This document shows, piece after piece, positions 7,675-11,769 of a DNA stretch of 64,000 nucleotides. The first letter of the stretch is position 1. Each line of letters starts with the position of its first letter. The stretch comes from Acutalibacteraceae bacterium (GTDB lineage Bacteria > Bacillota > Clostridia > Oscillospirales > Acutalibacteraceae): the NCBI GenBank assembly GCA_045590055.1, contig JAZNQF010000080.1:8901-72900 (forward strand), given 5' to 3'. A model generated the notes under the pieces. The model saw only the letters and a list, made by a program, of their open reading frames with translations. It searched no databases and was not told the DNA's origin. Both the position numbers and the translations under genes were made by a program.

Positions 7675-9230
7675 ATGGAATTGGATCAGATCAAGAGTCT
7701 TAAAAATATGATAGACTTTGCCGATGAACATTTTGCGGGTGAAGATTTTATCAGGTATAAGGTTGATGGGGGGCTTGCCTCAAAAACTTATGCCCAGCTT
7801 AAGTGCGCCTGCGATGCTTTCAGCAGAATGCTTGAGGCAAAGCAGCTCAAGGGCGCTCACGTTGCCGTTGTAGGTCCCACTTGCTTTGAGTGGATTGTTA
7901 CATATCTCGGCACGGTCAATTCCAACAGTGTTATCATCCCCCTTGCCGCAAACGAGAGCACGGAAATGAACTGCAAACTCATGGATTTTGTTGACACCGA
8001 TGTTTTCGTTTTTGACAAAGCACATGTTGAACTTTATCACGCCGTAAAATCAAGCCTCTCCAACATCCGCTTTTATATTTCTCTTGACGGCGCAGTTGAG
8101 GAAGAAGGCGTAATTTCCTTTGCTGATATTATTGAAGAATTTGCCGGCGTTTATAACTATGAGCCCGATGAAAATGTGATGTGCACCATTCTTCTCACAT
8201 CGGGCACAACGGGCTTCCCGAAGGGCGTTATGCTTTCGCACCGCAACCTTGTTTCTGCTGCAATGAGTGTGAACGAAAACTGCACCGCAAGGAGTGTGCT
8301 TTCCTGCCTTCCCATTCATCATGCATTTTGCTTCAACACAAACTTCCTCAAGCTTATTTTCCGCGGAGCAACTGCCTGCATCAATGACAATCTTATGAAT
8401 CTGCTTGCAGATATCAGACTTTTTTCACCGGACAGCATTGTTGTTGTTCCTCAGCTTGCAAAGAAGCTGATGGAAGGTGCAATCATGTTTTCCAAGGCTC
8501 ATCCCGAATTTCCCGTCAGCGATGCAGTGCATTCCTTCTTAGGCAACAGCGGCAAAATCATCTCAGGTGGTGCGCCTCTTGATGCAACCCTCAGCGCACG
8601 CTATAACGGTACGGGGATGCTTGTGCTCAACGGCTACGGTATGTCTGAATGTGCACCCTGCATTGCAAATAACACGCCCAACGATTACCGCCACGGCTCT
8701 GTAGGTAAACCAATACCGTGCGTACAGACAAAGATTGAAAACGGCGAGCTCCTTGTCAAGGGCGACAACGTAATGCTCGGCTATTATAAAAACCCCGAAG
8801 CCACCAAGGAAGCCTTCACAGACGACGGATGGATGCATACGGGTGATCTCGGCCATTTTGATGAAGACGGATATCTCTACATAACGGGCAGATGCAAAAA
8901 CCTCATTCTTCTTGACAACGGCGAAAACGTCTCAGCCGAATTCCTTGAGGAACGTTTTTCATCCGAGCCGCTTGTTGCGGAGGTTGTGGTTTACGGTGAG
9001 GACGGTGCAATCTGCGCAGAACTGTTCCTTAACCACGAACTGATGCAAAAACAGAACATAACTGACATTGACGCTGAAATGATGGAGCTTCTTTCAAGGG
9101 TAAACAACGGTTTACCGCCTCATCAGCGCATTTCAACCTACGTTATCCGCGACATTCCGTTTGAGCGTACCGCATCACAGAAGATAAAAAGAATAAGCGG
9201 CAAACCTTCAAGGAAGGCGCCCCGTGTTGA
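7675..9230 (+). other. domain: ANL adenylation domain, fatty-acyl ligase-like (approximate bounds)
   Basis: Motifs [29 protein letters not shown] and [31 protein letters not shown]. Confidence 0.75.
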
Positions 9231-11769
9231 ACCCAAGACGCCTGCAGAGGTAAGAGTCTGCAACGCCGTCAGGGAGATTCTTCTCAAGGATACTGTTGGC
9301 ACAAACGAAAACTTCTTCGCAATTGGCGGCGACAGTTTGTCAGCCGCTGAGCTTGCAGTCAGCCTCCACGTCAACACTCAGGTGATTTATGACAATCCCT
9401 TCCTCAGCTCACTGGCACTTGTTGTTGAAAAAACAATGGCAGATGAGGATATGGTACGCCCTGACGTCAACGGCATCATCAAAGCATCAACCGATGAAAG
9501 GGTAGAGGAGTATAAATGTGTTCTTCTCACCGGTGCAACAGGTTTTTTGGGTGCGCACATCCTCAAAGAACTCACGGAAAGAAATGTGAAAACCATCTGC
9601 CTTGTTAGGAATTCCGAGCGCTTCCTTTCTCAGCTTGAGTATTATTTTGATGATATTGATATATCAAACGTTACCGTCATCAAGGGCAACATTGAAAACA
9701 CACACCTTGGTTTGTCTGCAGACGTTTATAACTCACTTGCATCACAAGTGGATGCAGTGTTCCATGTTGCTGCAAACGTTCACCATGCAGGCGATTACCT
9801 TGAACTCAAAAAGACAAACGTTGAGGGCACGCAGAACGTGATTGATTTTGCAAAGGCGGCAAATGCGGTGCTTCACCACACGTCAACCGTCAGTGTTCAC
9901 GGCTCTGCAACCGTTGTGCAGGAAAACAGAACCGCTGTTTTTGATGAGTTTACCCTCAACATCGGTCAGCATTTCTATGACAACGTATATATCCACAGTA
10001 AATACCATGCGGAAGAAGCGGTACTGCTTGCAAGGCAGGAAGGTCTCAAGTCAAACATTTACCGTATCGGTAATCTCACGTGGCGTGCAAGTGACGGCAA
10101 ATTCCAGCGCAACAATGAAGAAAACGGCTTTTTGAGCCGTGTGCGTGCAATGATGAAGCTCGGCATGCTTAACGACAACATGGATACCTATCCCATGGAC
10201 CTCACTGCCGTTGATGAATGTGCAAAAGCCTTTGTAAGCCTTGCTTTTGCAGGCCACACAAACGAGATTTATCATCTTTATAATCCGAATTATCTCAAAA
10301 CCGCAGAGCTTTTCAATGCTCTCGGCAGGCAGTATAAGCACGTTTCTACGCTTGAAACAATTGAAACTGTTTTTGCCAATACGGACGACCGCGATATCAG
10401 AGTTTATCTGTTCTACATGATTATTTCAGGTCGCTCTGCATATATCGATACTCGTTGCACCTTCACCGTTGAAAGAATGGCTGAGGTCGGCTTTGAATGG
10501 AGCAAGCCTGACGGCAGATATATGAATCTTGGCGGCCATTGCACCGATTTTGATGAGTATGAAGTCAAGCCCATGCGCACATGCGGCGGTGCACTCACTC
10601 CGATTCAGAAAATTGCATTCGGCGGTCTGCAGGACGCTCAGCTCGGTGAAACCGAACTGTTCACGGGTGAAGCTTCACTTTCTGAACTTGCAGAAAGAGT
10701 CAGCGCGGACGGTGTGAGCAACCCGTTGGTTGTCACCTTCAACGCGGCGCTTAACTTTGAAAACGTGAAAACTCTGCTTTCCTCTTTCGGTAAATACACG
10801 GCGTACACTTCAATCAACGGTGAGCCGACAGTTGAGGATACGGAAAACTGCCTGCTTGCTTATCAACAGAATGATTGCGACGGTGTTGTTGCAATCGGCG
10901 GCGGATCTGTTATCGACTGTGCAAAAATTACGGCTCTGTGTGCCGCAAACACACACAAGCAGCTTGATGACCTCAACACCTTTGCCGTCAAAGCAAACCG
11001 TTGCGTGCCGTTTTACGTTGTACCCACAACTGCAGGCACGGGTTCCGAATCTACGGTATTCGCCGTAATTACCGACACAAAGGAGCACAAGAAAAAGGCG
11101 TTCGCCAGCGATAAATTTATGCCTTACGCGGTTGCGCTTGATGCGTCACTCACGCTCAGCGTGCCCGAATACGTTACTGCATGCACCGCCATTGATGCTC
11201 TTTCACATGCCGTTGAAGCTTATGTCAGCACCTTTGGCGTTGCCTTTGAGCAGGACAGAAAGTTGGCTCTTGTTGCTGCACGTAAGATTTTCTCAAGCCT
11301 TGAAAAAGCATGCAATAACCTTGACGATATTGCCGCCCGCACTGCCTTGCTTGAAGCCTCACATGAGGCAGGCGTTGCTTTCAGAAGAATCAGCACGGGT
11401 TACATTCACGCGCTTGCACACAGACTTGGTGAGCTTTATAATCTGCCTCACGGTGCGGCAATTGCAAGTGTGTTCACTTCAGTGCTCAGGGCTAACATGC
11501 CTGAAATTTGCAACGACCTTGCAAGCATGGCTGTATACTGCGGAATCTGCGAAGAAAGCGCAAACAAAACTGCAGATGCCGAAAAGTTCATTGCCGAAGT
11601 TGACCGTCTTATTGCTTGTGTCGGTATCGACAAAAAAGCAGTTGCTTTCAACGAAGCGGATGCACAGGAGATTGTGCTTCGTGCGCAGGAGGAAGTCAAG
11701 GTTGTAGGTTATCCCAAGCCGTTTTCGGACGAAAGCCTCACAAAGCTTTTGCTTGACAATTTCAGATAA
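7675..11769 (+). CDS. multidomain adenylation / carrier protein / thioester reductase / iron-containing alcohol dehydrogenase fusion (carboxylic-acid-reductase-like)
   Basis: One continuous 1364-aa ORF carrying motifs of all four domains; see the domain entries below. Confidence 0.85.
   Translation: [1364 protein letters not shown]
9240..9440 (+). other. domain: phosphopantetheine-binding carrier (approximate bounds)
   Basis: [14 protein letters not shown] motif. The predicted attachment Ser554 codon is AGT at 9334-9336. Confidence 0.75.
9515..10630 (+). other. domain: thioester reductase (SDR, NAD_binding_4-like; approximate bounds)
   Basis: Rossmann motif [14 protein letters not shown] and catalytic-type Y-x-x-x-K (YIHSK). 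Confidence 0.7.
10630..11766 (+). other. domain: iron-containing (group III) alcohol dehydrogenase (approximate bounds)
   Basis: Motifs [33 protein letters not shown] and [18 protein letters not shown]. Confidence 0.75.

Follow-up and report, generated by a model that had tools for sequence, protein, structure and literature searches.

A four-domain adenylation, carrier, thioester reductase and iron-type alcohol dehydrogenase protein of gut and rumen Oscillospirales, a predicted acid-to-alcohol enzyme

The gene and its four domains

We examined a 64,000 nucleotide stretch of DNA from an Acutalibacteraceae bacterium (GenBank assembly GCA_045590055.1, contig JAZNQF010000080.1, forward strand positions 8,901 to 72,900; the whole stretch is called the window, and coordinates without a prefix are positions within it), and in particular one gene that encodes an adenylation (A) domain, a carrier (T) domain, a thioester reductase (R) domain and an iron-type alcohol dehydrogenase (Fe-ADH, or ADH) domain. 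An initial annotation, made from the sequence of the window, had described the product as an enzyme like the carboxylic acid reductases (CARs) with its own ADH, encoded by a single open reading frame (ORF) of 1364 aa. The ORF listing and translation confirmed one uninterrupted frame, beginning with ATG and continuous from 7675 to 11769 on the + strand. The gene and the parts of its product are as follows.

7675..11769, + strand: whole gene for the A-T-R-FeADH protein, 1364 aa, ATG start, stop codon included (ORF listing, translation)
7771..9192, + strand: adenylation (ANL) domain, with an N-terminal subdomain at residues 33-371 and a C-terminal subdomain at residues 410-506 (Pfam)
9232..9459, + strand: carrier (T, or peptidyl carrier protein, PCP) domain, approximately residues 520-595 (PP-binding; phosphopantetheine Ser554 in GGDSL)
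9514..10560, + strand: thioester reductase domain of the short-chain dehydrogenase/reductase (SDR) type, residues 614-962 (NAD_binding_4; GATGFLG at 620-626, R645, triad T738/Y772/K776)
10561..10650, + strand: R-to-ADH connector, residues 963-992 (30-31 aa long across the family; modelled with a predicted local distance difference test score, pLDDT, of 87-92)
10651..11757, + strand: iron-type (group III) ADH domain, residues 993-1361 (Fe-ADH and ADH_Fe_C)

Profile scans with Pfam backed each of the four domains, in the order A, T, R, Fe-ADH that had been proposed. AMP-binding matched residues 33-371 (E-value 1.8e-54) and AMP-binding_C_3 residues 410-506; the PP-binding match (527-565, 7.6e-5) was partial, yet over the gathering score; NAD_binding_4 (PF07993) covered residues 618-852 (6.9e-43, 147 bits vs a gathering score of 20.1); and Fe-ADH (PF00465; 993-1156, 1.3e-38, 132.6 bits) and ADH_Fe_C (PF25137; 1168-1361, 1.1e-30, 107.2 bits) were both over their gathering scores. 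The protein had no Pfam match to the condensation domain (PF00668), which had likewise been reported as absent. Ten motifs quoted in the initial annotation were all recovered from the translation at the expected places, i.e., residues 172-185, 320-325 (GYGMSE) and 389-411 in the A domain; 547-556 (carrier), 617-630 and 772-776 (YIHSK) in the T and R domains; and 1075-1085, 1115-1125, 1173-1183 and 1257-1262 (LPHGAA) in the ADH domain. The codon for Ser554 was at 9334-9336, as had been given.

The residues expected at the active sites were present throughout. The A domain carries A3 (175-184), A5 (YGMSE, 321-325), D391, R406/K408 and the A10 lysine K503, and the R domain has an intact Thr-Tyr-Lys triad together with R645, an Arg typical of NADPH binding (the usual 2'-phosphate-binding Arg). 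The ADH part aligned end to end with Zymomonas ADH2 and Bacillus methanol dehydrogenase (MDH), with the metal and NAD motifs in register; it contains GGGS (1075-1078), TTAGTGSE (1118-1125) and the metal ligands D1174/H1178/H1245/H1259, which form a complete Asp/His3 site. The use of NADPH by the ADH domain is plausible from its sequence, since position 1022, where FucO and ADH2 have the Asp that confers NAD+ specificity, is a hydrophobic residue (F/V/L/I) in the four-domain family.

The A domain was compared with NCBIfam profiles of known substrate class. The top profile was the long-chain-fatty-acid-CoA ligase PRK06187 (209 bits, under its cut-off), vs at most 155 bits for the other substrate classes. 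Gly322 sits where acetyl-CoA synthetases have a pocket-limiting Trp, and an acetate-only pocket is thereby presumably ruled out.

Conservation of the four-domain family

A homologue search covering 5.8 billion proteins, with clustering at 90% identity, gave more than 110 clusters of 1350-1440 aa proteins in which the same four families of Pfam were all present; identity to the window protein was 46-58%. The clusters came from NCBI, ENA, JGI and Logan assemblies. The named sources were Ruminococcaceae, Oscillospiraceae, Acutalibacteraceae or "Clostridia" metagenome-assembled genomes, from gut and rumen. When the clustering was done at 50% identity, the family collapsed to essentially one representative among 1.84 billion proteins, and the family is thus narrow but populous.

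Residue invariance was judged on an alignment of 107 full-length cluster representatives. Invariant in 107/107 were, in the A domain, the A3 motif TSGTTGxPK, the A5 motif YGxxE, D391, R406/K408 and the A10 lysine K503; in the T domain, G551 and S554; in the R domain, G620/G623/G626, R645 and T738/Y772/K776; and in the ADH domain, G1075-G1077, D1081, T1119/T1122 and D1174/H1178/H1245/H1259. The mean identity to the window protein was 56% for A, 46% for T, 61% for R, 44% for the connector and 48% for ADH, and the length of the connector was 30-31 aa in all 107 sequences. Because the catalytic residues are invariant in 107 homologues while overall identity is just 46-58%, all four parts are under selection.

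A true split (Rosetta-stone) version of the fusion was not found among the homologues examined for it (P0123, P0114). P0123 was considered as a stand-alone ADH and rejected, being a fragment at a contig end. In P0114 (L087:6984-11117) the homologous gene is broken into two ORFs, one of 330 aa with the AMP-binding part and one of 1038 aa with the rest, which is probably a frameshift or assembly error and no natural split.

Predicted structure of the R and ADH domains

Residues 600-1364 were modelled with AlphaFold from a 40-sequence alignment. The R-ADH didomain model had a mean pLDDT of 90.6 and a predicted template modelling score (pTM) of 0.87, and the connector had pLDDT 87-92. The pTM value is high for a two-domain chain, which suggests that R and ADH hold a fixed mutual arrangement and are not beads on a string. 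In Foldseek searches the ADH half superposed on ADH2 (3owo), DhaT (3bfj) and FucO (1rrm) with TM-scores of 0.90-0.92 and a root-mean-square deviation of about 2 Å; no solved chain spanned both the R and ADH halves.

A conserved ligase neighbor

We gathered 21 four-domain loci from contigs encoding homologues, from a scan of GTDB genomes and from a metagenome scan. The GTDB scan, made with a full-length alignment, was flooded by ordinary acyl-CoA ligases detected through A-domain patterns and gave three true four-domain loci; the metagenome scan started from the C-terminal part of R, which is specific to the family. One widely recurring neighbor of the four-domain gene was seen, a gene resembling those for fatty-acid-CoA ligases (FACL).

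4276..6003, + strand: stand-alone FACL-like AMP-binding gene, 575 aa (Pfam), the sole widely recurring neighbor of the four-domain gene

Of the 13 loci with at least 1-2 kb of flank on each side, 8 had a FACL-like gene no more than 2 kb from the fusion; such a gene was present again in L144 (the loci with an orthologue at this distance include L089, L092, L095, L003, L005, L007 and L087), and near none of 32 loci of the sister clade described below. The neighbors are 560-600 aa long across loci, and their NCBIfam matches were all to long-chain-fatty-acid-CoA ligases, under the cut-offs. The orthologues were 43-54% identical to the window copy, a divergence about that of the fusion proteins themselves, and just 25-27% identical to the A domain of the fusion. 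The FACL-like ligase gene is tandemly duplicated in L003 and L095.

A sister clade without ADH, linked to plasmalogen-synthase-like genes

From the metagenome scan we also recovered 32 loci whose A-T-R product, about 980 aa long, has no ADH. Identity to the window protein was 32-38% in A and about 50% in R, and in a neighbor-joining tree the A-T-R-only proteins were monophyletic and sister to the four-domain clade. The A-T-R-only proteins retain the Ser, Lys and triad residues (G551 and S554 of the T domain included), and the conserved columns were common to the two clades at 103/109 positions in R and 49/57 in the A domain.

In 25 of the 30 loci of this clade with downstream sequence, a gene that we call plsA/plsR-like lay 11-139 bp 3' of the A-T-R gene on the same strand. 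The non-redundant count of the linkage was 17/21 clusters at 90% identity; the linked A-T-R proteins had as little as 50% mutual identity, and the upstream contexts varied (linked loci: L086, L101-L104, L107, L108, L110-L113, L115-L124, L127, L128, L130 and L139; e.g., L117:7580-13572 and L110:7559-14812). The plsA-like product (cluster c1, about 990 aa) combines two BcrAD_BadFG activase domains (PF01869) with DUF2229 (PF09989), and the plsR-like product (cluster c2), usually encoded next, is about 430 aa with weak similarity to HGD-D and DUF2229 only. The PlsA/PlsR anaerobic plasmalogen synthase is encoded by a 4.2-kb two-gene operon and has Act1-Act2 activation domains with Red1 and Red2 (PMC12838417; bioRxiv 10.64898/2026.06.23.733905). 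The genes downstream of the sister A-T-R genes match it in domain layout and in operon size, and the name plsA/plsR-like, after C. perfringens CPE1194/1195, refers to this layout. The linkage appears to be unreported, as literature searches found no account of it.

Goldfine's review records that Ruminococcus lipids are largely plasmalogen, and that long-chain aldehydes, not long-chain alcohols, are incorporated into plasmalogens by bacteria (PMC9702350). An enzyme making fatty aldehyde, encoded ahead of plsA/plsR-like genes, fits this old observation. The tight operon of the sister clade with these genes is a concrete lead on the handling of fatty aldehydes in the ether-lipid metabolism of anaerobes.

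Comparison with known systems

Literature searches found no characterized A-T-R-ADH enzyme, in agreement with the initial annotation, which knew of no characterized example with the ADH fused; the architecture appears to be uncharacterized, with a chemistry predictable from its known parts.

The description as CAR-like held for the reaction logic, the A-T-R order and the phosphopantetheine Ser, but not for family membership. The Nocardia/Mycobacterium type of CAR (NCBIfam NF041592) has in common with the window protein the A-T-R order, a dependence on phosphopantetheine and, as predicted, ATP plus NADPH chemistry giving an aldehyde; whereas, the window protein scored 161.2 bits against NF041592, over the A-domain region only, vs a cut-off of 1300, its R domain is nearer to the reductases of non-ribosomal peptide synthetases (NRPS) (1e-35 vs 1.6e-9 for CAR), and CARs have no fused ADH and end at the aldehyde. 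The terminal reductases of NRPS are the closest solved relatives of R, sharing the NAD_binding_4 fold and the T/Y/K triad (archaeal NRPS PCP-R 6vtj, 1.4e-35; AusA R, 1.7e-29; MxaA, 4.4e-24; compared with CAR R, 1.6e-9). They differ in that the four-domain protein is without a condensation domain or peptide context, and its score against the thioester-reductase profile TIGR01746 was 177.7 bits, below the curated cut-off of 213.35. A more distant C-A-T-R relative, P0139, does have a condensation domain.

In the fungal enzyme ATRR (A-T-R1-R2) mutagenesis established that R1 makes glycine betaine aldehyde and that the fused R2 converts it to choline, and this architecture was reported as exclusive to eukaryotes (bioRxiv 10.1101/559534, Hai, Huang & Tang). 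Both ATRR and the Clostridia protein place a dedicated aldehyde reductase behind A-T-R, for two successive two-electron reductions on one polypeptide. R2 of ATRR is, however, a YdfG-like SDR, whereas the Clostridia protein has an iron-type ADH of unrelated fold and a FACL-like A domain; the likeness is convergent, not orthologous.

AdhE also has a C-terminal Fe-ADH behind a thioester-reducing module and hands the aldehyde on internally, and its ADH is homologous to that of the four-domain protein (8.3e-35; TM-score 0.86 to the excised AdhE ADH domain). The front of AdhE is a CoA-acylating aldehyde dehydrogenase acting on acetyl-CoA, whereas that of the four-domain protein would be an ATP-driven A-T-R acting on free acid; the four-domain protein had no Aldedh match, and its NCBIfam match to AdhE was to the ADH half only (161 vs 951 bits).

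Myxobacterial ElbD and the alcohol-forming fatty acyl reductases (Marinobacter FAR) are also multidomain, and in the synthesis of ether lipids or waxes they take activated fatty acids to the aldehyde or the alcohol. Their domain sets differ from that of the four-domain protein and are not known to include an Fe-ADH. The four-domain protein is not a member of the CAR equivalog family, nor an ATRR or AdhE, and is best described as an NRPS-like A-T-R reductase with an A domain of FACL-like type and an acquired Fe-ADH.

Proposed reaction and substrate

The protein is probably a self-contained NRPS-like carboxylic acid reductase with a built-in aldehyde reductase, whose most likely substrates are medium- or long-chain fatty acids and whose products would be fatty alcohols in the lipid metabolism of Oscillospirales. 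A phosphopantetheinyl transferase (PPTase) encoded elsewhere would prime Ser554; the A domain would adenylate a carboxylic acid with ATP and load it as a thioester onto the T domain; R would reduce the thioester with NADPH and free the aldehyde; and the ADH domain, held against R by the connector of fixed 30-aa length, would turn the aldehyde into a primary alcohol. The net reaction would be acid + ATP + 2 NAD(P)H to alcohol, a four-electron reduction by one polypeptide, without build-up of the reactive aldehyde. The sequence acid, acyl-AMP, thioester, aldehyde, alcohol, proposed in the initial annotation, is still the natural reading by analogy, and fungal ATRR gives it a biochemical precedent.

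A fatty-acid substrate is likely but unproven, being favored by the ranking of the A-domain profiles, by the conserved FACL-like neighbor and by the lipid context of the sister clade. The fatty-alcohol or ether-lipid product that was originally suggested is something that we still infer, with indirect support from the FACL-like neighbor and from the plsA/plsR-like operon of the sister clade.

Several observations weigh against a fatty acid-to-alcohol enzyme. The PDB similarity of the A domain cannot separate substrates, with luciferase and malonyl-, oxalyl- and fatty-acyl ligases all at 1e-33 to 1e-27; the top profiles for the ADH domain were of short-chain enzymes (ErcA, FucO, EutG, GbsB and methanol DH); and no domain reached any curated NCBIfam equivalog cut-off. 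No PPTase was found in the window by Pfam scans of most ORFs of at least 140 aa or by phmmer with approximate Sfp/AcpS queries against ORFs of at least 70 aa, a weak negative that agrees with the absence of an adjacent PPTase noted in the initial annotation. Apart from the FACL-like gene, the neighborhoods of the fusion are unconserved, and most genes in them are of housekeeping or sugar type (in the window, ispE and araB); no plsA/plsR-like gene was seen close to any gene for a four-domain protein, nor in any part of the 64-kb window. Some R domains, moreover, do both reductions unaided, and the ADH would then be redundant.

If the proposed reaction is correct, this would be the first bacterial enzyme taking a free carboxylic acid to an alcohol on one polypeptide with an Fe-ADH, a convergent counterpart of fungal ATRR in which the logic of CAR is merged with that of AdhE. 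The homologues are common in gut and rumen Oscillospirales, yet PGAP names them only "iron-containing alcohol dehydrogenase", so that such an activity is invisible in metabolic reconstructions. A compact acid-to-alcohol enzyme that does not release aldehyde could also be of practical use in biocatalysis, e.g., for fatty alcohols or diols.

More speculatively, and on balance we think this improbable, the four-domain enzyme and its A-T-R sisters could mark an unrecognized aldehyde/alcohol branch of anaerobic ether-lipid metabolism. The A-T-R protein linked to plsA/plsR-like genes would turn free fatty acid into the fatty aldehyde used to form or remodel vinyl ethers (plasmalogens), and this would account for the incorporation of aldehydes, but not alcohols, by bacteria. 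In the ADH fusion that aldehyde would instead go on to fatty alcohol, either to be built into alkyl lipids or waxes or to relieve the cell of aldehyde as a safety valve.

Alternative explanations

The same acid-to-alcohol chemistry could be directed at a short or functionalized acid (a hydroxy acid, a dicarboxylate or a betaine-like acid) and yield a diol or an amino alcohol, which we consider a possible, if somewhat unlikely, outcome. The ADH domain scored best against ErcA, lactaldehyde reductase, EutG, the choline dehydrogenase GbsB, 4-hydroxybutyrate DH and 1,3-propanediol DH; ATRR, the one characterized enzyme with A-T-R plus a reductase, takes glycine betaine; the PDB matches of the A domain are equally compatible with several substrate classes; and in some sub-lineages sugar and oxidoreductase genes adjoin the fusion, namely a GFO/IDH/MocA-type oxidoreductase gene directly 3' of it in one closely related group of five loci, and a gene for a xylose-isomerase-like TIM barrel directly 5' of it in two loci. 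However, the long-chain ligase leads the A-domain profiles by more than 50 bits, the conserved neighbor is a FACL-like ligase, the sister clade is operonic with plasmalogen-synthase-like genes, and the names of Fe-ADH subfamilies are a poor guide to chain length.

It is quite improbable that R alone does the full four-electron reduction, in the manner of MxaA, and that the ADH scavenges free aldehydes (e.g., from plasmalogen breakdown), oxidizes alcohols, or has a regulatory role like ErcA. The R domain does count MxaA among its relatives in the PDB; ErcA, an ADH-like regulator, was the top NCBIfam match for the ADH part (below its cut-off); and the host lineage is plasmalogen-rich, plasmalogen hydrolysis being a source of fatty aldehydes (PMC9702350). 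Against this, the NAD motif and the four metal ligands of the ADH are invariant in the 107 sequences, and the connector of fixed length and the pTM of the didomain model speak for coupling of the two domains. Since the proteins of the sister clade do without an ADH, its presence in the fusion adds a step. Closer relatives of R, such as AusA, release aldehydes.

A role as the release module of a non-ribosomal peptide or polyketide pathway, i.e., as an enzyme of secondary metabolism, is very doubtful. The best whole-protein NCBIfam alignments were to the A-T-R ends of AusA and MxcG, and the R domain finds its next relatives in proteins of C-A-T-R order, about 1410-1435 aa long (L133-L135, P0139); but the four-domain protein itself lacks the C domain, and its A4-equivalent motif LPIHHAFCF (residues 212-220) is of the acyl-CoA-synthetase kind and not of the FDxS type, which places the amino-group-binding Asp in A domains that activate amino acids. 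No biosynthetic cluster was present at about 20 loci examined, where the flanks were housekeeping genes.

An artefact of assembly or gene calling, for which the two ORFs of P0114 might be cited, is refuted by the continuous translation frame, by the same fusion in more than 100 independent clusters from four assembly sources, by the residue invariance in 107 sequences, and by the contig-end nature of P0123.

Flanking signals and other genes of the window

The following signals and genes flank the four-domain gene or lie elsewhere in the window.

7536-7564 and 7609-7637, + strand: two weak sigma-70-like sites in the 174-bp gap 5' of the gene (consensus matches only)
11774-11801 and 11856-11879, + strand: two G+C-rich hairpins 3' of the stop codon, with a T-run after the second
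11907-11935, + strand: perfect TTGACA-17-TATAAT promoter for araB (consensus match)
14174..19146, - strand: possibly associated block, on weak evidence, of GDPD (14174-14938), GDPD (14954-15727), an 803-aa protein and a lysophospholipase-like Hydrolase_4 gene (18202-19146)
48854-51478: polA
51909-62793, + strand: division/cell-wall cluster of mraZ, mraW, a penicillin-binding protein with PASTA domains, murE, mraY, ftsW, murG and murA

An AGGA sequence lies about 10 nt 5' of the ATG of the four-domain gene. A divergent ispE gene is 5' of it and the ribulokinase gene araB is 3'. The two 3' hairpins and the separate promoter of araB indicate that the four-domain gene is probably monocistronic in the window. 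An Rfam scan detected tRNA only, with no riboswitch or leader 5' of the gene. A functional link to ispE or araB was considered and rejected: both are housekeeping genes of unrelated function, a perfect promoter of its own precedes araB, and neither gene is found again at the other loci. Otherwise the window has the content of an ordinary chromosome (carAB, nadE, purB, polA and the mraZ-murA division/wall cluster), and the standard division/cell-wall cluster and polA mark it as core chromosome. The four-domain gene is a stand-alone chromosomal unit, outside any natural-product cluster.

Two GDPD genes and a Hydrolase_4 gene lie no more than 7 kb from the fusion in the window and also, in a different order, in L008, which encodes a 55%-identical fusion; among the loci, L008 was the only one where GDPD2-like (42%) and Hydrolase_4 (52%) genes recurred within 5 kb. 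This proximity perhaps hints that the fusion is connected with phospholipid turnover, or else it is residual synteny. The 803-aa protein of the block (15788-18199, - strand) had no Pfam or NCBIfam match, and its DDGW and YWKLDG motifs recall the GH27/GH36 alpha-galactosidases; true GH36 genes were seen near the fusion in L001, L005 and L087.

Two related fusions were also met among the cluster representatives. A degenerate paralogous family of 1150-1185 aa (P0160, P0170 and P0192; L145:1264-4725) keeps the T-R-ADH order, with 26-28% identity over T-R-ADH, and keeps the R triad, and has lost TSGTTG, the carrier Ser (replaced by Ala), GGGS and the His ligands; its sequence suggests a pseudo-enzyme related to the four-domain proteins. 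P0205 (1029 aa) has an Fe-ADH fused to an aldehyde:ferredoxin oxidoreductase (AFOR_N plus AFOR_C), and may represent another single-chain route from acid through aldehyde to alcohol in anaerobes.

Elsewhere in the window, a 1348-aa ORF (30095-34141, - strand) encodes a complete large chain of carbamoyl-phosphate synthase (CarB) with a diaminopimelate epimerase (DapF) domain fused to its C-terminus (DAP_epimerase, 3.6e-54), an unusual arrangement, with carA directly upstream.

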